A DNA stretch of 64,000 bases, taken from a virus. A program made the position numbers and the translations under genes. Below are positions 3,465 to 52,534 of this stretch, piece by piece. The stretch's first letter is position 1, and each line of letters starts with the position of its first letter. The notes below the pieces were generated by a model. The model had not been told where the DNA came from, ran no database searches, and saw only the letters and a program-made list of their open reading frames with translations. Location of the stretch: positions 33,582 to 97,581 of the IMG/VR virus record IMGVR_UViG_3300005581_000001. One strand, given 5' to 3'.

Positions 3465-5299
3465 TGAATAGATATTCAAACTACGAAACATCAGCATATA
3501 AGCCAATGACCACTCAAGAGATTTGGGCTCCTGCTGCAGCTATGAGACAACAACATAACGCAGCTGATGAAAAACTACAGACACAGATAGCTGAATTAGA
3601 TAAAGTTAATCCTTTAGATGTTCATTACGATAAAGCTCAAAAAATTAAATCTGACCTCCTAAAACAAATAGAGGGTCAAGCTGAAGTTTTATCTAAAGAA
3701 GGTTTTAACGGAAATACAACATCTGGTGTATATAGAACAAATAGACAACTTCACGAACAGTTTTCACCAACAGGAGAGCTTGGTCAAATCAATGCGGCTA
3801 AAACCGCATACGATACTGAAAAAGCAACTTATTTAGATGATGCTACTAAAACTTCTAAGATAGGTCGCGAACAGGCTTTAAAGAACTGGAATAGATACGC
3901 AAAAGAAAAATATACTGGATATAGCGAAGATGGTAAAAAAATAACAAATATAGGAGCTTTAGGCTCTCCTGCTTATCAAGATTATGAAACCGACAGAAAT
4001 CAGTATCACGCATTGCTAGGTAAAATTACTAGTTCCGCAAAAGCTAGTGGACATGCTATAGTTCCTGATGCTACAACTGGATTATTAATGATGGTTAATA
4101 GAGGTGGAAACGTGGTGCATTCAGATAATATTGATGCTTTAAATAACGCAATGAAAGGTATGAAGGATAAATGGGTTAGTGAAACTGGAGAAGGTCGTAA
4201 ATGGGCTGATGCAGCTGGATGGGACCCTAATCATACTAACTATAGAATCAATCAAGACTTTAACGCGATGAAAGAAATTTCTAACGTTGATAATAGAACT
4301 GAAAATTATGATGTACTATCAGGACAAACGCCTGGCGGTAATCGACCACAGCCAATAGTTCCAACAACTATACATGACCCAAGTACGCAGAAAACGGTTG
4401 GAGAATCTATTAAAAAAATAGATTTTAGTTCTATAGGTGCTAATAGACCTGGTTCAAAATATTCAGATAGACAAACATTTCAAGGATATAATGACGCCCC
4501 TAGAAGAGATTATGTTCCTGCAGGAAAAAATACCTATAAGGACATTATTAAAGATCCCGTACAACAACAAATATATAAAAAATCTTATGAAAAACTTGTA
4601 GCTAATGGCAAGATACCGCAAGGTCAAGATATAAACGATATAAATACAGCTAAAGTTGTTGGTTTTTATATGAATAAATATGCTAAAATACCAACTATAG
4701 CCAACGATGTTATTCTTCCAGATAGTGCTACAAATTCTCAACAATTTATGGGTCAATTTGATAAAAAACCTGGAGCTCAAAGAGATGCAGAAGCTCAAAG
4801 AGATTTAAATAATGGATATAGAAGTATTATAGAGCCTGGAACTAATCGCGAATTAACTCCTGATGAATTTAGAGCAAAGGGGTATAAAGTTAAATACATA
4901 GGTTACGATAGTCATTTAAGTTATAATGGTTATAATTTTAAAGGAAATAATAAGAATAAACAAACTGTGTTAACGCACAAAGTTGAAGTTATTGGACCTG
5001 ATGGAATTTCTTTAGGACAAGCTCCTATGACTAGAAGTAGACAAGAAATGGATACTCCTGAATTTAAAAAATCATACCAAATAAGTCAAATATATAGAAA
5101 CGCTGTTGAACGTTTTGATGACTGGGTTGTTCCAAAAGCATCTGATAATACAAAAATTAAATTTAAAGAAAACGGTATGTTTGATATTATTTATAATGGA
5201 AATTTATATGAAAATGCTACTGGGCCTGAATATGAATATATTATGGATAAAGCAATGACTGAAAAACAAATAAAAGATGAGTCTAAGAAGAAAGAATAA
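3464..5299 (+). CDS. Putative virion-injected protein, 611 aa
   Basis: Long ORF coupled (TAATG) to the previous gene, inside the cargo block. Confidence 0.55.
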   Translation: MNRYSNYETSAYKPMTTQEIWAPAAAMRQQHNAADEKLQTQIAELDKVNPLDVHYDKAQKIKSDLLKQIEGQAEVLSKEGFNGNTTSGVYRTNRQLHEQFSPTGELGQINAAKTAYDTEKATYLDDATKTSKIGREQALKNWNRYAKEKYTGYSEDGKKITNIGALGSPAYQDYETDRNQYHALLGKITSSAKASGHAIVPDATTGLLMMVNRGGNVVHSDNIDALNNAMKGMKDKWVSETGEGRKWADAAGWDPNHTNYRINQDFNAMKEISNVDNRTENYDVLSGQTPGGNRPQPIVPTTIHDPSTQKTVGESIKKIDFSSIGANRPGSKYSDRQTFQGYNDAPRRDYVPAGKNTYKDIIKDPVQQQIYKKSYEKLVANGKIPQGQDINDINTAKVVGFYMNKYAKIPTIANDVILPDSATNSQQFMGQFDKKPGAQRDAEAQRDLNNGYRSIIEPGTNRELTPDEFRAKGYKVKYIGYDSHLSYNGYNFKGNNKNKQTVLTHKVEVIGPDGISLGQAPMTRSRQEMDTPEFKKSYQISQIYRNAVERFDDWVVPKASDNTKIKFKENGMFDIIYNGNLYENATGPEYEYIMDKAMTEKQIKDESKKKE

Positions 5300-32314: not shown

Positions 32315-34138
32315 TTAAATATCAGACATAATTATAATAGGCTCTTCTTCTGTTCTTTCAACATTAAAAGCATTGTCAGAACCGTAAGTATAATCAATCT
32401 TACCTAATACACCTTCAGCTATACTTCCTTGAACTATCCACTCTTTTTTCATCTCCACACCAAATCTATCTATTATTTTTTGAACCTCTATTTTTTTTTG
32501 AATTTTTTCAAAAGCGTTTTTAAGAGAATCGATTCTAGATTCTATAGGTGAAGGTTGATCTAATTGTTTTCGATTGTTACGTTTATTTAAAATTGGTTTA
32601 TTTTTTAAAGAATAATTTAAATTCTGAGATTCATCCCAATCTATTGATTTGTAGCAATAAATATTTTCCTCTTTACCTACTATATCCCCTTTGCAATTTT
32701 CGTCATAAATAACTCTTTTTCTTGCCTCTATGTAGTTTAAATGATAATTTACTAGTAAATCTTTATCTCCACTATTTAAGTTAATAAAATTTATAGAGTA
32801 ATTGCAAATCAATCTGTTAAGACTTATTCCATTTTTACCATCCAAAAAATAAGGATCGCTTAATATCCTATTTTGATTAGCAATAGTATAATTTATTAAA
32901 TAAGAATTAATAAACAGAAAGTTTAATATCTTATCGATATCATAAGTCGGTGTATGAATTCTAAACTCAATAGTCTCTTTATTACCAAAAATTAAAGGTA
33001 TAAGGTTGTGTGCATAATATCTTTTTTTGATATTCCACTTTTGATTACCATTAGGGTCTGAAGGGTGATTTTTAACGTTGTTTAAGTCACATTTATAATC
33101 ATAAAAGCTACTACCTTCAGTTAAGTGAGTGAACAAAACATCAAAGTTTCTATTTACTTGTTCCTTATTAGAATAATCTATAGAAGGTTCTAATTTAGAA
33201 TTTATTTGATGAAATGGAAATGGCTCTGAATAATTTTTTCTTTTTATTCCAAAATTATATTTTTTATAAAGTGGAAATAAAGAAAATATTTCTTCTTGAT
33301 AATTAGTTATTAATTTATAAAAAGCTAATATGAATTCAGGTGTTCTTGGTACATTTCCAATATGTAAATGTAAAGAGCAATCATCGTTATATTCAGTTCT
33401 TTTTTCTAATTCTTTAACGCAATCAATAAGGGCTTTAATTCCTTTTGCACCACTTAAAGGTATTGTTACATATTCTAATCCAGCTATACTACCATCTCTT
33501 AAAGGTATTAAGGGAAGTGCATTTAATTTTTCTTCTGGAAGAATACCTTTAATTGTTTCAAATTCAAATCCAAAAGTTAAATCTTTAAGTATTTTACTAT
33601 ATTTTTGAATAGTGGTATTTATTACAGGATTATAATTTTTATCATATCTAATTATATGATTATTCATCATTCCTTTTGAGTCATAAGGTAATGATTCTTT
33701 ATATTCCCTTTTAACCGTTCTAATCAAATTAAACTGATATGCACTTTTTAATGATATATGATAAAAATTACCACTAGATAATTCTTCTCTAAAAGATCTA
33801 TTTATTATATTCTCATTAATACAAACATACATTTTTTTATCTTTGTCTATTAAATATGCATTACTAAAATCAGTATTAAAATAGCCAAAAACAAAATCGG
33901 AATTTTTTTCCATCTCAATTATTCCGTAAGTTAAATTATCATTTTTTAATTGATAATTTTTAAAAGTATTATTAAAAACTACTCTTCCAGTATTCATTCT
34001 AATATATCTTCCATCAATTAAGTAAACATCTCCTGAGTTTTCGATATTACTATCTCCAATTAAGTAATATTTTTGATCTATTAGTCTGCAATTAGATTTT
34101 TTAGATACTTTACCACTTATCGTTATAACTTCATCCAT
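32315..34138 (-). CDS. Putative amidoligase (glutamine synthetase/GCS-fold COOH-NH2 ligase)
   Basis: FGFEFE, RDGSI..LEYVT.PL, SLHLHIG and TIEFRIH motifs. Confidence 0.8.
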   Translation of the reverse strand: MDEVITISGKVSKKSNCRLIDQKYYLIGDSNIENSGDVYLIDGRYIRMNTGRVVFNNTFKNYQLKNDNLTYGIIEMEKNSDFVFGYFNTDFSNAYLIDKDKKMYVCINENIINRSFREELSSGNFYHISLKSAYQFNLIRTVKREYKESLPYDSKGMMNNHIIRYDKNYNPVINTTIQKYSKILKDLTFGFEFETIKGILPEEKLNALPLIPLRDGSIAGLEYVTIPLSGAKGIKALIDCVKELEKRTEYNDDCSLHLHIGNVPRTPEFILAFYKLITNYQEEIFSLFPLYKKYNFGIKRKNYSEPFPFHQINSKLEPSIDYSNKEQVNRNFDVLFTHLTEGSSFYDYKCDLNNVKNHPSDPNGNQKWNIKKRYYAHNLIPLIFGNKETIEFRIHTPTYDIDKILNFLFINSYLINYTIANQNRILSDPYFLDGKNGISLNRLICNYSINFINLNSGDKDLLVNYHLNYIEARKRVIYDENCKGDIVGKEENIYCYKSIDWDESQNLNYSLKNKPILNKRNNRKQLDQPSPIESRIDSLKNAFEKIQKKIEVQKIIDRFGVEMKKEWIVQGSIAEGVLGKIDYTYGSDNAFNVERTEEEPIIIMSDI

Positions 34139-36103: not shown

Positions 36104-36910
36104 TTATATTGTTACTAGTTCTCTTTTTTCACTATTAATATTAATTAATAATTTAGTTGCTAAATCTAAATTAGCAGTATCTATTGCCTCTCTAACTTGT
36201 TCTGAATACAAATCTATTAATTCGTCAATTTCATTGTTTAAAACAGTCTCTATTGCCTTAATTGATTGTCTGTATACCCATCTCATATTTTCTTCAGATT
36301 TAATCCAAAAATTAGATAATGCTCTACATTCAACTCCAAAATCTTTTACTCTAAAAGACCCTGCTTTTCCATATAACTCTCTTCGACGCGTATCATTGTC
36401 TTTGAAAAGAGCTGGTAAAGTAACAAACATATCAAAAGCTTTTACAATTTTTTCAGATGTTTCAAATTGAGGATTTTCGTAGCCAAAAGCTACATGTCCA
36501 CCTGCACATCTTAAATTAGTATTATTATCAGGCGGCTCATTAATAGATTTTGCATAGACATTAAAATCTGGCTCACATCCAAAAGTGGTTGCTTGCAACG
36601 ATCTTAAATATTTTTTATTAACAACACCGCTCACGGCATCGCTTAAATAATATCCATGGATGCCTGCTAATATGTCTAAATAATCTATACAAGTTTTATG
36701 TGCGTTGACCCACTCATCTTCAGTTTTACAAGGCGGAATATTGTACTCAAACATAATTCCATCTTCTTGAATTGCGTGTCCATATTCACTAATCTTTTTT
36801 GGATTTTTTTTAGTTCCTCCTTCAGTTAATCCTTCTGCAGAAACTATTTCTTTATCATCGCAAATAAATGTTTCTGGATCTGCACCTAATGTTATATTAA
36901 ATTTATTCAT
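36104..36910 (-). CDS. phiEco32-like COOH-NH2 ligase type 2
   Basis: GADPE, QEDG..EYNIPP, FGCEPD, AGGHV, RRELYGKAG.FR.K.FGVE.R.LSNFW. Confidence 0.85.
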   Translation of the reverse strand: MNKFNITLGADPETFICDDKEIVSAEGLTEGGTKKNPKKISEYGHAIQEDGIMFEYNIPPCKTEDEWVNAHKTCIDYLDILAGIHGYYLSDAVSGVVNKKYLRSLQATTFGCEPDFNVYAKSINEPPDNNTNLRCAGGHVAFGYENPQFETSEKIVKAFDMFVTLPALFKDNDTRRRELYGKAGSFRVKDFGVECRALSNFWIKSEENMRWVYRQSIKAIETVLNNEIDELIDLYSEQVREAIDTANLDLATKLLININSEKRELVTI

Positions 36911-36927
36911 TTTTCTGTTTATTTATT

Positions 36928-37611
36928 TTATAATCTTAAATAGTTTTCAATTAAATTCAAGCATTCTTCAACTGTGTTTTCTGGACAATTACTATATTCT
37001 GGATGACCTTGTATACATAAAGATCTTGTATTAGGATAAAACACTATTTCACATTCTTCAAAGTTTTTAGGTAATTCTTTTTCAGAATTTATACCATCTA
37101 AATATGTATTTGAAAGAAAATGAGTAGCTGTTGCTAATATTTCATAACTTTCTTTTGGAAGATTGTAAGGAAACATCATTTGATGATGTGTAGAAGTTAT
37201 TTGAAACTCTCCATTAATTCCTAAGTATTTCATGTCTAATGGATGAGAACCACTTAATCCATGACCACTAACGTGTTGGATTAATTTTCCGAAATTCATA
37301 ACAGTCAAAAACTGAGCTCCTCTGCATATCCCTAATTTAGGAACTTTATACATTCCACTTCTGTTAAACATATAATCGTTTTCAGTAGAATCTCTTTTTT
37401 CATTTATACTTGTATATCTACCCTTACTTTCTCCATAGAAACTTGGACTAACATCTTCTCCTCCTGTAAACAAAACTAAATCTATTTTTATAAAATCTAT
37501 ATTTTCTTTACAATCAATTGAAGTGACTTCAAATCTTTTTGATAAAAATTCTACACAAGCACCGTGTCCAGCAGAACTATTAACTAATACTGTTATTTTT
37601 TTCTTATTCAT
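36928..37611 (-). CDS. Class I glutamine amidotransferase / peptidase C26-like (copy 1)
   Basis: TGGEDV, GICRGAQ, HHQ and QGHPE catalytic motifs. Confidence 0.85.
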   Translation of the reverse strand: MNKKKITVLVNSSAGHGACVEFLSKRFEVTSIDCKENIDFIKIDLVLFTGGEDVSPSFYGESKGRYTSINEKRDSTENDYMFNRSGMYKVPKLGICRGAQFLTVMNFGKLIQHVSGHGLSGSHPLDMKYLGINGEFQITSTHHQMMFPYNLPKESYEILATATHFLSNTYLDGINSEKELPKNFEECEIVFYPNTRSLCIQGHPEYSNCPENTVEECLNLIENYLRL

Positions 37612-37616
37612 TTTAT

Positions 37617-38330
37617 TTATTTTAATAATTTATTAATTTCATTTACTGTGAATTCACAATTAAATTCTTCTGGATGCCATTGAACTCCTAATATAGGTAA
37701 TTCAATGTGTTTAAATGCTTCAATCGTTACAGGCATATCAACTCTATTATCAATATGACCTTCTTTATTGAAATATCTCCAAGTAGCTGTTGTTTCTTGA
37801 TTAGAATAACATCCTCTAAATTGTTGAGAATATGCGATTAATTCCAATCCATTACCTAATACCTCAACTGATTGATGATGCATTGTATTAATATAATACT
37901 CTTGTTCACTATTAGTAAATTGAAGTTTTTGTCTAGTAGACTGCCTATCATCTCCTTGATGATGCCCAATTATGTGTTGATTTAAATTACCTCCTAAAAA
38001 GCAATTTATAGCCTGCATTCCTCGACAAATACCTATAATAGGTTTGTTTGCTTGAATAAATTTAGGAAGTAATAAACTATCTAAATATTCATAATGTTGA
38101 TTAGCTCTTCCATCCATAGCGCCTGGCACTTTTCCGTACAAAGCAGAATTAACATCAGCCCCTCCTGGAGATACCAACACATCTATTTCATTTTCGATAT
38201 TGTCAAAATTGTCTAATGTAGAAATTAATCTAACATATCCAAACTGACTAAAGAATTGCATATAAGGCATTGTTTGACCTACTTTTCCATTAAAAGCGTC
38301 AGCATAAATACCAATGATTTTTTTATTCAT
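37617..38330 (-). CDS. Class I glutamine amidotransferase / peptidase C26-like (copy 2)
   Basis: PGGADV, GICRGMQ, HHQ and VQWHPE motifs. Confidence 0.85.
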   Translation of the reverse strand: MNKKIIGIYADAFNGKVGQTMPYMQFFSQFGYVRLISTLDNFDNIENEIDVLVSPGGADVNSALYGKVPGAMDGRANQHYEYLDSLLLPKFIQANKPIIGICRGMQAINCFLGGNLNQHIIGHHQGDDRQSTRQKLQFTNSEQEYYINTMHHQSVEVLGNGLELIAYSQQFRGCYSNQETTATWRYFNKEGHIDNRVDMPVTIEAFKHIELPILGVQWHPEEFNCEFTVNEINKLLK

Positions 38331-38343
38331 TATTTCTTTTTAT

Positions 38344-39039
38344 TTATTTTAATTTTAATTTAAATCCTTTAATATTATCTGTCTTATTATTTATAACATT
38401 ATTAATTTTACTTATACTACAATTATATTCAATAGATAATTCTTTTATATGCGACCATTCTTTTATAAAATTACCGTTTAAATCATATTGTAAAATAGCT
38501 TTTCTTTTTTTAATTCCAGATATTGGTATTATTATATTAGCTAAATTTATTCTTTCATTTGTAATTTCTGATTCATATGACCAAATTTCATTCTTAAGGG
38601 GTCTATTTCTTAATCTAGCACATTTAGCTATTCCTGCTACACTATGATTTAATAAATTTGCAGCTTTAGTACAACTTTCGTATTTACATATAAACTTACC
38701 ATTTAATGAAAATCTATATACTGGAATTTTATTTCTACCACCTAATTCTTGAACATTTTGAAACATATTATATCCCTTATCTGTTTTATATGATTCATAT
38801 AAATCTATATAATATTGTTCTCTTTTTAAAATATCAATATTTTGTTCAATATTTTCAATTACAATTATTTTAAAAAAATCTACTCCATTTTTATTGTATG
38901 AATTTTGTAAATACTTACAATGATGATTATTTTTTTTTAAACGATTAAAGTGTTCTTTTTTTCTTCGTGAAAAATTAGTTGTACTTCCAATGTATTTTTT
39001 ACCATTAATTAAATTAATAATTGCATAAATTACTTTCAT
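38344..39039 (-). CDS. GIY-YIG homing endonuclease with NUMOD1-like repeats
   Basis: VIY...YIGST...R, REQYYI, GYN; repeats VYRFSLNGKFI and LQYDLNGNFIKEW. Confidence 0.85.
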   Translation of the reverse strand: MKVIYAIINLINGKKYIGSTTNFSRRKKEHFNRLKKNNHHCKYLQNSYNKNGVDFFKIIVIENIEQNIDILKREQYYIDLYESYKTDKGYNMFQNVQELGGRNKIPVYRFSLNGKFICKYESCTKAANLLNHSVAGIAKCARLRNRPLKNEIWSYESEITNERINLANIIIPISGIKKRKAILQYDLNGNFIKEWSHIKELSIEYNCSISKINNVINNKTDNIKGFKLKLK

Positions 39040-39064
39040 ATATTATTGTATTAAATTATACATA

Positions 39065-39096
39065 CAAATATATGTATTATTTTTTAATAATCCTAA
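39065..39096 (-). promoter_or_regulatory. TTAGG-N19-TATATTTG promoter of the GIY-YIG endonuclease
   Basis: Reverse complement of caaatata (39065-39072) and cctaa (39092-39096). Confidence 0.65.
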
Positions 39097-39137
39097 TAAT
39101 TCACTAATTATTTTATAATTATTTTTATTATAATTTT

Positions 39138-39545
39138 TTATTTTGGTAATTGTAATTGTCTTACTAAACTTAATTTTATAAGTAATATATTCATTTCGCT
39201 TCCATTTGTTGATGTATAAGGCATATTACCAATTATAGATCCAGGAGCCATCCATTCTATTACATCTAAAGCGTGATTTCTGTTTAAATCTAATAATAAT
39301 ATTCTTTTTAATCCAGGATAATAACTACGTCTCATCTTTATAAATAAATCTCTAATTTTATATTTATTTAAATAAGGCATCATAGCACAAAAAGCATAAG
39401 CGCTCGCTAATTGACAATTATCTGTTGGAGCTTCTATATATTTAAATTCCGTTCTATATCCTCCTTTTATGGATATTATTACAGTATTAGGTTCACGACT
39501 CATATTAAAATCTTCTACTTCTCTTGGATCTTTAATTTCTTTCAT
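39138..39545 (-). CDS. Hypothetical protein within the amide-ligase cluster, 135 aa
   Basis: Overlaps the end of the ATP-grasp gene. Confidence 0.55.
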   Translation of the reverse strand: MKEIKDPREVEDFNMSREPNTVIISIKGGYRTEFKYIEAPTDNCQLASAYAFCAMMPYLNKYKIRDLFIKMRRSYYPGLKRILLLDLNRNHALDVIEWMAPGSIIGNMPYTSTNGSEMNILLIKLSLVRQLQLPK

Positions 39546-40440
39546 TGTATTTTTCTATTAAAAGTTTTGGCAATTCTTCTTTGTATTTTTCTAATGTAAC
39601 TTCTCCGAATGATGGCGCTGAATTCACTTCAATTACTATGAAATCACAATACGGTCTTTCGTCGCCATTTTCATCAATATTATTTTGAACTCTTAAATCA
39701 CAAGCTCCAAAATCTAATCCGCAAGAAACTACTGCATCGGTACAATGTTTAACTATTTCATCCCAATTTGAAGGTTTATCAAAGTTTTCATTGCCTTCTA
39801 AAATCCACACAGAGTTATCATCGTGTCTTTGCCAAGCATTAGGATGATCTTTAAATTCAGTTTTTAACATTTTTCTACAAGAGTAAAAACATCCATTTTT
39901 AGTACAGTGAAGCCTATATTCTTTATTAAAATTAATAAATCTTTCAAAAAGATAATTATCTAATTTTTTATCTTTTGCCCAGTTTTCTAATTCTTTTTGA
40001 GACTTGAGCAGATAGTTGCCAGTTCCTCTTGATCCAAAAAAATGTTTTGCTACAATAGGATATTTTAAATCCATAGGATCTACGTCAAAATCTTCGCTTT
40101 CAGATTCAATACTTCTATCTTGAAATTTTGATCCATTAAACATATACCATTGAGCTGTATTAACTCCTCCAGCACTAAAACATTCTTTCATTCTAAATTT
40201 AGAAGAACTATTTCTAATAGCTTCTTTAGAATTTAATTCAATTCTTTTACCTTCTAATGAAGACCTGTCAACTAATTCAGTTAAAGATCCAAATCTTACA
40301 ACTGATCTAAATGGTAATTTTGCAATTTCATATCTTAATTTATTATGAGATGGATGACGACTACGTATCATAGGTCTGTATTTATTACCATTAACATCTC
40401 CAATTGATTTTCTTAAAACTCTTTTAACTAATACTCCCAT
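39532..40440 (-). CDS. ATP-grasp peptide ligase (RimK/YheC-like)
   Basis: PIVAK...GSRGTG, EYRLH, GLDFGACD and IEVNSAP motifs. Confidence 0.85.
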   Translation of the reverse strand: MGVLVKRVLRKSIGDVNGNKYRPMIRSRHPSHNKLRYEIAKLPFRSVVRFGSLTELVDRSSLEGKRIELNSKEAIRNSSSKFRMKECFSAGGVNTAQWYMFNGSKFQDRSIESESEDFDVDPMDLKYPIVAKHFFGSRGTGNYLLKSQKELENWAKDKKLDNYLFERFINFNKEYRLHCTKNGCFYSCRKMLKTEFKDHPNAWQRHDDNSVWILEGNENFDKPSNWDEIVKHCTDAVVSCGLDFGACDLRVQNNIDENGDERPYCDFIVIEVNSAPSFGEVTLEKYKEELPKLLIEKYNERN

Positions 40441-40862
40441 TCGTTATATATTTTAACATTGTTTTTTGTTTCTTGCATTTTCATCCACGAACACCAATCT
40501 CCACACTCTATTTTTTCAAGGTTTGAAGAATCGTAATTAAATAAATAAATAAAAGCTTCTCCATAAGGAGTTTCTATTGTTTCTTTATTGTAATAATTAT
40601 CTTCTTTATCAAAGTCTTCAGAATATCCTTCTAACTGATCTAATTTTTTTTGTATGTCTTCATCTGCCTCAAAAACTTCCATAATTATTGAAGTAGACCC
40701 TTCATTTATTACAGCAGGATATCTATCATTTACATTAAACATTGTGAATACAGGTTCAGAATTAAATGTTCCAATATATTCTGATTTCCCTAATGTATAA
40801 TGATTATGCATTCCTTGCCTTAGAGAACCATAAACTGCTACTAATTTTTTTTCGTTTTTCAT
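40428..40862 (-). CDS. Gamma-glutamylcyclotransferase (AIG2-like)
   Basis: VAVYGSLRQG...YPA...LDQLEGY...GDW. Confidence 0.9.
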   Translation of the reverse strand: MKNEKKLVAVYGSLRQGMHNHYTLGKSEYIGTFNSEPVFTMFNVNDRYPAVINEGSTSIIMEVFEADEDIQKKLDQLEGYSEDFDKEDNYYNKETIETPYGEAFIYLFNYDSSNLEKIECGDWCSWMKMQETKNNVKIYNEWEY

Positions 40863-49504: not shown

Positions 49505-49840
49505 ATCACTTTTTACCAAAGTATCGACATTATACACGTATGTATAATTTATTATTTAAGCATATGGATCAGGCGTGTCATCGTCTAATATATACATTAT
49601 AAATCCAATTAATATACCAGCTATAATTGCAGTTGTTATTGTCATAATATTTTTTGTTTTAGTTAATAATAAAATAATAGTGTAGGTTGTTAATCTACAT
49701 TTCCCCAATTATAAGTTTTATTCTTATGTTATACGACTAGATTTAAGAATTTATATAACTGCTTATAATTGTTACATCTACTGATAAGGGTGCTAAACGT
49801 TTGCACTAACTATTATTTTTAACACATACACACTTATTTG

Positions 49841-49914
49841 TGATCTAAAAAGTAATCGAACCTTTGACCTACTGATTATGAGTCAGTTGCTCTAACCTAC
49901 TGAGCTATTAGATC
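49841..49914 (-). tRNA. tRNA with CAT anticodon (Ile2/lysidine-type or Met)
   Basis: GATCTAA-TA-GCTC AGTAGGTTA GAGC-A-ACTGA CTCATAA TCAGT-AGGTC-AAAGG TTCGATT ACTTT-TTAGATC-A; one T-stem mismatch. Confidence 0.85.
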
Positions 49915-50072
49915 GTTGATAGAACTTCACATACTATGTAATCCTATTCTATCTGGTAACACTGAGCTGTTACAGGGTTTGTCGTGATGCTAACTACATC
50001 CACAAACACGATACTTTCTTAGTGTTAGATCAAGTATCACAATCTTAACTGATTGATTATCAGTACTATACG

Positions 50073-50546
50073 TGGAGGTGGCGGTAATCGAAACCGCGTC
50101 GATCAATACTTTTGTTATATAATTTTATACAGCTTTTTGTAGAATTTAATCTTTAATGTCCCTTAAAAACTACTAAATGTGGACTAATACATAAAAGTTG
50201 CTTCTACATTGTAAGGGTTTTATGCTAAAATAATTTACTTCCTATTACTTTATGAACTGGTAAATCAACAGAATCCTCATAACCGTCGATAGGATACGTT
50301 TTGGTTCAGGGTTAGCGCACAACGCGAATTCTAACTTGCTGACCGTTTTAAACTTATGCTGCCAATTCTAATTCACCATAAATGATGTCAGATTTAACCT
50401 CAGTTCCACCATTTAAGATGTTATGAACTACTTGCATATTCGCTGATACTTGATCTTTGCCGTTTAAAAATATTCACCTTAGTTTACAGTTATCTCTCTG
50501 GCTGAATTATATAATTACTTGCACAACCTCAAAACCTGGCACCCCC
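50073..50546 (-). ncRNA. ssrA: tmRNA, 474 nt
   Basis: 5' GGGGGTG pairs with 3' CACCTCC-A, giving G3.U70 and A73 (Ala identity). T arm GCGGT-TTCGATT-ACCGC; 5' GGTTTTGA motif; internal frame ending LAA-stop. Confidence 0.9.
50354..50461 (-). other. tmRNA tag reading frame: GKDQVSANMQVVHNILNGGTEVKSDIIYGELELAA*
   Basis: GGC after TTTAAAC (inferred resume codon), then 35 codons to TTG GCA GCA TAA. Confidence 0.7.
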
Positions 50547-50670
50547 TTTATTTATTTTATTATAAAACCATTGGAATTAATAGTTAATTCCAATGATTTA
50601 TTTTTATACCGAATTAAGACTTGTTATATAACACTCTTTTTTAAAGATTTTAGTCTATTCCAGCGTTTAT

Positions 50671-51120
50671 TTATTCTTCTTCATCATCTTCTTCTTCATC
50701 ATCTTCTTCTTCAATAGCATTGCCTGCTTCTTGAAAAGCTTCAAAATATTCTTTTGTTAAAGAATCAACGCCTTCAATTTTAGCAAACAATTTAGCCGCA
50801 GTAGCATTAAATTCTTTCTTTTTGGCAACTTCTAAAGCATTTAATTTTTTACGTTCTTCAACAAGTGAACTGTTTAAAGTAACGTATCCTTTCAACATAC
50901 TTTTTAAATCTTCTTTTACTTGTTTAACAGTAGCTTCAGATTCTTCCTTAAATAGTTCTTCAACTAATTCTTGCATTGCGTCTTTTTTTACTTTGCTAGT
51001 AAGTTTAAGATTTTCTGGGCCTTTAACAATTGCTGTTAATTTTTTAACTGTTTGTTCAAATCCAGCTAATACTTTTTTAGCTTCTTTACCTTGATCTTGA
51101 TTTTGATTTTCTGTATTCAT
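50671..51120 (-). CDS. Coiled-coil protein with acidic tail, 149 aa
   Basis: Ends EEEDDEEEDDEEE. Confidence 0.65.
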   Translation of the reverse strand: MNTENQNQDQGKEAKKVLAGFEQTVKKLTAIVKGPENLKLTSKVKKDAMQELVEELFKEESEATVKQVKEDLKSMLKGYVTLNSSLVEERKKLNALEVAKKKEFNATAAKLFAKIEGVDSLTKEYFEAFQEAGNAIEEEDDEEEDDEEE

Positions 51121-52202: not shown

Positions 52203-52383
52203 TATCCTTTTACAGTTAATTTAACTTGATAACGAACTTTATTTCCAAATTTTACAAACTTGTCAACAATGCTATTTCTCAATTCTTGTTGATTTTTAAA
52301 TGGAGTTTCATATACACCCAACACTTCTTTTTCTTTTTGAATTTTCATAATCTTTAATTTATTTAGTTATTTAATTTATTTAG

Positions 52384-52458
52384 TAGCGGGAATAGGATTC
52401 GAACCTATGTAACTGAGCTTATGAGACTCGGCTGGAACCAACTCCAGTCCATCCCGCA
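52384..52458 (-). tRNA. tRNA-Met(CAT), initiator-like acceptor end
   Basis: TGCGGGA...TCCCGCT-A with a 1:72 mismatch; loop CTCATAA; T arm ATAGG-TTCGAAT-CCTAT. Confidence 0.75.
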
Positions 52459-52463
52459 ATATG

Positions 52464-52534
52464 AGTTTCTAAATGGATTCGAACCAATACTAATAGTTTT
52501 GCAAACTACTGCACTACCGTTATACTATAGAAAC
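52464..52534 (-). tRNA. tRNA-Cys(GCA)
   Basis: Acceptor GTTTCTA/TAGAAAC, U73 discriminator, anticodon arm GTAGT-TTGCAAA-ACTAT. Confidence 0.8.

Follow-up and report, generated by a model that had tools for sequence, protein, structure and literature searches.

Peptide tags encoded by tmRNAs are normally short degrons of about 10 residues. Does a phage tmRNA carry a tag of 35 residues, as the sequence of one viral locus suggests, and if so what would the added residues do? The locus lies in a stretch of 64,000 nucleotides (positions 33,582 to 97,581 of IMG/VR record IMGVR_UViG_3300005581_000001), which we refer to as the window. Phage tmRNAs as such are already known from cluster C mycobacteriophages, Bacillus phage G and huge phages (PMC4131195, PMC7162821). 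A 2025 tmRNA database covers RefSeq viruses without discussing the tags described here, and against its commonest tag length of 10 aa a tag of 35 codons is atypical (PMC11915505). For the phage family to which the window RNA belongs, our literature search returned only a gene count, the statement of 'one tmRNA gene' in Calle (PMC8776804), and no paper describing a long tag. Our comparison of the window RNA with its relatives makes it highly likely that this is a real tmRNA, with a 35-residue tag translated from a Gly codon by means of host factors.

Structure and detection of the tmRNA gene

The window is DNA of a crAss-like phage of flavobacteria, and the nearest contig found (L065) is about 76% identical or less over the tmRNA and about 67% identical elsewhere. 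The tmRNA gene occupies 474 nt of the minus strand, 50073-50546, with G1 at 50546 and the discriminator A at 50073; the features of the locus are collected in Table 1. Its acceptor stem comprises 7 bp, formed by GGGGGUG and CACCUCC, includes the G3.U70 pair and is followed by the discriminator A. A T arm with a UUCGAnU-type loop lies directly 5' of the acceptor 3' strand, and CCA is not encoded by the gene. The original prediction, which was made from the letters alone, had described a complete one-piece tmRNA of alanine identity with an intact T arm. That description is confirmed by the exact end coordinates, the G3.U70 pair, the discriminator A, the T arm GCGGU-UUCGAUU-ACCGC, a full-length alignment to RF00023 and covariation within the family.

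The two programs proposed as a check, ARAGORN and the Rfam tmRNA model, gave a divided answer. A permissive Rfam scan of 1.4 kb aligned the window RNA to RF00023 at full length (1-374; 50070-50546, minus) with 33.7 bits and an E value of 1.6e-11, but only below the gathering score of 47. Because of this shortfall, the default scan at the gathering threshold called no tmRNA in the window. ARAGORN reported three tRNAs in the window and made no tmRNA call. The single-sequence fold of the window tmRNA (z = -0.84) was uninformative. We considered a remnant of an integration site, that is, an attP-type partial copy of ssrA, and rejected it: both ends of the gene are intact, its sequence covaries, and the phages that carry it are of lytic type. 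Judged by its sequence and its relatives, the window RNA is a phage-encoded one-piece tmRNA that is predicted to be functional.

Table 1. Features of the tmRNA locus in the window, with the basis for each.
Feature	Position	Strand	Basis
Complete one-piece tmRNA gene	50073..50546	minus	full-length RF00023 match, sequence and family covariation
Acceptor stem 5' strand GGGGGUG, which contains G3 of the alanine identity pair G3.U70	50540..50546	minus	sequence
Acceptor stem 3' strand CACCUCC plus discriminator A (50073); U70 equivalent at 50076	50073..50080	minus	sequence
T arm GCGGU-UUCGAUU-ACCGC	50081..50097	minus	Rfam alignment, sequence, covariation
P2 helix 5' strand	50501..50528	minus	RNAalifold, 71 distinct family sequences
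P2 helix 3' strand (GCUGUAUAAAAUUAUAUAAC...)	50101..50133	minus	RNAalifold, family alignment
PK1-region motif AGAGAGAUAACUG-UAA-ACUAAGGUGAA, family signature	50473..50499	minus	common to cultured phage tmRNAs and more than 118 IMG/VR contigs among the matches listed
Frame-setting context UAAAC ahead of the resume codon, U(-5)A(-4)	50462..50466	minus	UAA(A/U)N in 77/77 family tags
Tag reading frame, 35 codons: GKDQVSANMQVVHNILNGGTEVKSDIIYGELELAA; resume codon GGC at 50459-50461	50357..50461	minus	sequence and family comparison
Conserved tag core Q4-N17 (Q..ANM..V..IL); ANM codons 50435-50443	50411..50452	minus	family tags; predicted helical
Tag stop codon UAA	50354..50356	minus	sequence
Post-tag domain, 220 nt, putative helix 5 / PK2-PK4 region, longest of the family	50134..50353	minus	low-confidence Rfam alignment
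Promoter match of sigma-70 type, TTAACT-17-TATAAT; its end lies 13 nt ahead of the mature 5' end	50559..50587	minus	consensus match only; no enrichment of such sites relative to shuffled versions of the region

A family of related tmRNAs in phages

Searching cultured phages by blastn, we found matches to the 5' part of the tmRNA in the Cellulophaga phages Calle_1-3, phi38:1, phi40:1 and phi14:2 (crAss-like, Steigviridae) and in about 29 Flavobacterium psychrophilum phages of the FpV4 / Fpv1-3 / FPSV group. The tmRNAs of these cultured phages share with the window family the PK1-region motif, the context of the resume codon, an Ala-Asn-Met (ANM) core in the tag and a long tag, and their genes score 46-88 bits with Rfam. 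A tmRNA is annotated in Calle_1; in most other cultured-phage records the site is unannotated or overlaid by small hypothetical ORFs. The phi14:2 gene maps to 4031-4502 of KC821624.

The shared PK1-region motif served as an exact pattern with which the family was collected, and the invariance of the motif is in part a product of that construction. Its family-wide form is AGAGAGAUAACUG-N(1-10)-ACUAAGGUGAA, followed 10-12 nt on by a Gly or Asp resume codon, and the window conforms to it. The pattern is present in more than 118 IMG/VR contigs among the matches listed, from which we extracted 104 complete tmRNAs, 78 of them distinct; counts of tags rest on the 77 that have the ANM core. The sequences are partly related to one another, and the counts given here are not counts of independent events. 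Rfam places PK1 on the conserved motif, about 10-12 nt ahead of the resume codon. We tried to pair the motif by hand in several ways to form PK1, none of which was consistent across members. The invariant ACUAAGGUGAA (50473-50483, minus, in the window; present at all family loci) holds AGGUG, a Shine-Dalgarno-like sequence, 11-13 nt upstream of the resume codon.

Secondary structure in the family was recovered by MAFFT and RNAalifold applied to the 5' and 3' parts of 71 distinct sequences, which yielded the acceptor stem, a long P2 helix and the T arm. Compensatory changes among these relatives are abundant in all three elements, with many two-sided ones in P2. The five pairs of the T arm are all standard in 71/71 sequences and show 3-4 pair types per position. 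G3.U70 and the discriminator A are found in 78/78 members, and the detection rule forced neither. The part that follows the tag measures 126-281 nt in the family, of which the window tmRNA, at 474 nt, is the longest member. The family occurs in at least three unrelated phage lineages, namely Crassvirales, Pervagoviridae and Fipvunavirus.

Outside phages, the PK1-region pattern matched only 1 of 185,579 species genomes. The sole match is a 4.9-kb contig of a Flavobacteriales MAG (JBIPLT010000239.1, L124) that IMG/VR lists as viral too (L116 = L124). Apart from its family tmRNA, we found none in that MAG that exceeds the Rfam cut-off. The contig is probably a phage fragment binned into the MAG. 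Since the one match falls on a contig that is viral in IMG/VR as well, the long-tag tmRNA family is phage-only within the IMG/VR contigs, cultured phages and 185,579 species genomes searched.

Chromosomal SsrA of Flavobacteriales (RF00023) resembles the window RNA in being a one-piece molecule with G3.U70 and discriminator A, a T arm, a long P2, a Gly or Asp resume codon after UAAUU/UAAAY and an Ala-Ala end. The differences lie in score, tag and motif. Thirty chromosomal tmRNAs from this order scored 118-181 bits, whereas the window RNA scored 33.7, and their tags are 9-10 residues long (GENNYALAA, GNNDYAMAA, DNNNSYALAA, with Gly/Asp resume codons after UAAUU), in contrast to 35 residues with a Q..ANM..V..IL core. 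The phage PK1-region motif is likewise foreign to the host molecules, with the single match in species genomes described above. For the host tags, a length of about 9-10 aa and a Gly start had been given for Bacteroidota in the original prediction; the Flavobacteriales tmRNAs agree, with either Gly or Asp at the start.

A blind spot in gene finding has helped to hide the long tag. ARAGORN detected 59 of the 78 tmRNAs, missing a quarter, and returned the full tag frame in 9; in 50 of the 59 it chose a later in-frame resume codon, which shortens the tag. Public annotations of the family tags are likely truncated, and this blind spot of annotation is in part why the long tag has gone unremarked so far. 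Some pattern matches fall outside the canonical set. One locus, L036 (IMGVR_UViG_3300048835_000649), has the motif and a Gly resume codon without the ANM core, and its open frame is longer and unrelated (GNIDNDAQEVVDINYTFSTPMMVVHKGERK...). Ten others (L100, L117, L118, L013, L038, L054, L064, L094, L026 and L041) have both motif and ANM core with ample flanks, and our detector found no T arm or acceptor within 650 nt at these loci, which could have variant T arms or insertions.

Tag frame and resume codon

The frame quoted in the original prediction was recovered from the sequence letter for letter (Table 1), and it ends in ...ELELAA-UAA. Tags in the family range from 24 to 45 residues, most commonly 35, and close with UAA in 61 cases and UAG in 16. 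In E. coli, the frame is set by the five nucleotides that precede the resume codon (U85/A86), with A86, at position -4, nearly universal and the resume codon 12 nt after PK1 (PMC2481249). The resume context in the family agrees with this rule (PMC2481249). Alignment of the phage tmRNAs points to an upstream Gly or Asp codon (GGC, GGA or GAC) as the resume codon in 77/77 tags, 10-12 nt past the motif and after UAA(A/U)N. In several members an in-frame UAA stands two codons upstream (UGA AUU UAA UUA AAU before GGC), and the tag frame is therefore unable to begin earlier in those members.

A normal short tag would result if translation resumed instead at a later in-frame codon, either the GGU of GELELAA, an outcome that had been raised together with the prediction itself, or one of the sites that ARAGORN selects in relatives, so that the frame upstream would go untranslated. 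The preference of ARAGORN for such codons speaks for this reading, as does the fact that a 35-codon open frame is expected by chance in about 6% of cases in this base composition. However, the sites picked by ARAGORN vary between members, whereas the U(-5)A(-4) context and the fixed spacing from the PK1-region motif are conserved only at the upstream Gly/Asp codon. The portion of the frame that a short tag would leave untranslated also evolves as coding sequence, with an excess of third-position change and a synonymous fraction of 0.41 before the core, against 0.23 expected. We therefore regard a short tag as very improbable.

The same signature of selection on the peptide, the codon-level conservation of the insert, extends over the whole tag. 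Pairwise differences between family tags at codon positions 1, 2 and 3 are 0.31, 0.30 and 0.50, and 57% of single-base codon differences are synonymous versus 23% expected. The synonymous fraction is 0.76 in the core (0.21 expected) and 0.56 after it (0.27 expected), and at the invariant Ala, Asn and Val positions every synonymous codon is in use. Both other frames contain stops in 77/77 tags. Lengths are equally telling: the distance from the frame-setting context to ANM takes eight values (15-51 nt) and that from ANM to the first GCN-GCN-UAR takes 12 (48-87 nt), all of them multiples of 3 although no frame was imposed on either measurement. These 20 length classes require at least 18 frame-preserving indels. 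The C-terminal module of the window tag (GGTEVKSDII...ELAA) recurs in two relatives, L058 and L123, behind different N-terminal modules, and between the window and L058 the module differs by 11 synonymous and 5 non-synonymous codon changes. Because this module recurs with mostly synonymous differences, the whole insert of the window tag is selected as peptide.

The AUG of ANM is invariant in 77/77 tags, and bacteria of the phylum Bacteroidota often start translation without a Shine-Dalgarno sequence. On these two grounds the AUG might be taken for an ordinary start codon, with the RNA doubling as an mRNA for a free peptide (MQVVHNILN...LAA). Yet the codons upstream of it are open, in frame and in synonymous excess over eight length classes, which would be pointless for a peptide initiated at AUG, and the RNA has all the elements of a chargeable tmRNA. 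An AUG-initiated peptide is scarcely credible in this light. The comparative evidence favors tagging: the 35-residue tag is very probably real, and translation most probably resumes at GGC (50461-50459) and not near the end of the frame.

Tags of the family are mosaics in which the C-terminal module GGTEVKS(N)DII..ELAA is joined to three N-terminal modules (L058:440-574, L123:3986-4102 and window 50357-50461), an arrangement that suggests recombination inside the tag-coding region.

Tag core, host factors and possible fate of tagged chains

The tag combines a host-like start (G-K/N) with a conserved core and a linker, acidic and variable, whose Ala-Ala C-terminus again resembles that of the host. 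In the family, starts are GK, GN, DN or DK in 77/77 tags, and 69/77 end in -AA, among them VAA (43), LAA (7), IAA (7) and MAA (6); ends that depart from -AA include VGV in Calle and MVA in phi14:2. Together with host tags of 9-10 aa, these counts uphold the proposal that the phage RNA has kept the Gly resume codon and the LAA end of its host counterpart and gained about 25 residues between them. Across 68 distinct tags the core positions Q4, A7, N8 and M9 never vary, and V12 is conserved in at least 90%. We saw the core Q..ANM..V..IL only in phage tmRNAs of this family, and host tags are without it. A profile of the tag had no match in the PDB and, among 1.84 billion protein representatives, retrieved only 76 short ORFs miscalled across tmRNA genes; a search of the ESM Atlas with the tag gave no usable match.

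AlphaFold2, run with the family alignment, places a helix at residues 2-17 (block pLDDT 89 and 79). The model then breaks at GGTEVK and continues in a second helix that is weaker. The tag core is probably helical by this model. Its hydrophobic moment is 0.37 compared with 0.24 +/- 0.12 for shuffles, of which 15% reach 0.37; the difference is not significant, and we dropped an amphipathic helix as evidence for that reason.

Any action of the tag would depend on the host. SmpB is present in 30/31 Flavobacteriales genomes. Calle_1, phi14:2, FpV4 and two IMG/VR genomes, of which one is 100% complete, lack it (PF01668). An HMM built from 25 Flavobacteriales SmpB sequences found nothing among 365 six-frame ORFs of the window (best E 0.84) and recovered 25/25 in a control. 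ClpP and the CCA-adding enzyme are absent from five phage relatives. Pfam searches of 30 window ORFs identified no Clp, Lon, SspB, Pth or release-factor domain, and no protease, adaptor or rescue factor. As genes for SmpB, ClpP and the CCA-adding enzyme were not found in the window or its relatives, the phage tmRNA is, on gene content, in need of host factors; the reliance on host SmpB, previously proposed from the window, holds for the window by HMM and for complete relatives by PF01668. A search for a partner gene among 992 neighboring ORFs from 78 loci gave clusters that each occur in 16 loci at most, the most widespread of them without translation or protease domains.

A phage without its own SmpB might also use such an RNA mainly as a decoy that titrates host SmpB, the tag being irrelevant. 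There is precedent in mycobacteriophage DS6A, whose RNA consists of the tRNA-like domain only and is proposed to be an inhibitor that titrates SmpB (PMC4131195). A decoy, however, needs neither the strong peptide-level selection seen across the whole tag nor the conserved frame-setting context and Ala-Ala-stop end, and we consider this role highly unlikely. We favor an RNA that tags. By homology, it would be transcribed from the phage genome and trimmed; host enzymes would add CCA and charge it with alanine through G3.U70 and A73, and host SmpB would bind it for entry into stalled host ribosomes. Comparative sequence evidence then points to resumption at the GGC Gly codon (50461-50459) and addition of the 35-residue tag ending in LAA. 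The Ala-Ala end would still hand tagged chains to host AAA+ proteases, and an infecting phage would benefit from the ribosomes set free and the amino acids recycled.

What the core adds is a matter of more tentative interpretation. The ideas in the original prediction that the inserted residues could alter protease or adaptor specificity, and that the RNA may rescue ribosomes after attack by host nucleases, are speculation. To judge from its conservation, the tag probably has a role beyond marking proteins for destruction: an invariant peptide core under purifying selection implies a specific binding partner or activity that has so far been overlooked. The invariant helix face, in a peptide that has no partner gene in its neighborhood, points to a conserved target in the host. 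Our best guess, offered with reserve, is that the conserved helix serves as a built-in docking or adaptor-like element, making the tag a two-part degron and altering which protease acts or how fast. Conceivably, and with equal reserve, the helix would be a cis-acting adaptor or anti-adaptor that docks tagged proteins on a particular host protease or jams that protease.

It is also possible, if doubtful, that the tmRNA and its 35-residue tag are real and the helix is not a degradation aid. It might give rescued chains another fate, such as targeting to membranes or aggregates, chaperone binding, or blocking or saturating a protease, or it might act in the exit tunnel while the tag is translated. 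Consistent with such roles, the core is invariant while some C-termini leave -AA (those of Calle and phi14:2 above); ANM stands 18-31 residues from the C-terminus, which would put it inside the exit tunnel at termination; and the tmRNA of the unrelated phage Bxz1 likewise has a long tag. On the other side, the canonical -AA end in 69/77 tags argues that degradation is still the end point.

Two known systems bear comparison. The tmRNAs of Bxz1-group mycobacteriophages (Hudson, Lau and Williams 2014, PMC4131195) are also phage-encoded and complete and have a long tag; in Bxz1 (L187:1501-1935) ARAGORN gives a 25 aa tag, ATDTDATVTDAEIEAFFAEEAAALV, and the gene lies inside a tRNA cluster. Their sequence, host phylum and tag are unrelated to those of the window RNA, and the ANM core is missing. 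The second is the long ssrA tag of M. pneumoniae, a Lon degron read by a protease other than ClpXP (PMC8403727). It resembles the phage tags in its unusual length and is a precedent for length going with protease choice (PMC8403727). It differs in belonging to a cellular tmRNA from a lineage without ClpXP, whereas the window RNA is viral. If the helix does act as proposed, phages would reprogram the fate of rescued chains, with phage-tagged chains handled unlike host-tagged ones. Long tags in unrelated phage tmRNAs, such as the 25 aa of Bxz1, would then reflect a general viral strategy and not a quirk of one lineage; as it stands, long tags may be a recurrent viral theme. Cultured pairs make the idea testable, namely Cellulophaga baltica with phi14:2 or phi38:1 and Flavobacterium psychrophilum with FpV4, and strand-specific RNA-seq of phi14:2 infection is on record (GSE133609, according to a preprint).

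The DNA around the gene has several features of its own. A perfect 12-bp hairpin (CATTGGAATTAA-TAG-TTAATTCCAATG, 50569-50595) lies between the upstream ORF (50671-51120, minus) and the tmRNA and overlaps the promoter-like match. ARAGORN places tRNA genes on either side of the tmRNA (49840-49914, 52383-52458 and 52463-52534, minus), two with a CAU anticodon and one tRNA-Cys; one of the CAU tRNAs may serve as an initiator or as tRNA-Ile2. Rfam also matched 'Plastid-ycf2' opposite the first tRNA, on the other strand, and we dismissed this match as an artefact of that tRNA. Within the family, tRNAs occur within 2.5 kb of the tmRNA in only 19/78 loci, and a tRNA-island context is not general. Further away, at 36104-40862 (minus), Pfam identifies a phiEco32-type COOH-NH2 ligase, two Peptidase_C26 / GATase proteins, a GIY-YIG/NUMOD1 endonuclease and a gamma-glutamyl cyclotransferase, a ligase/GATase cluster unrelated to the tmRNA.
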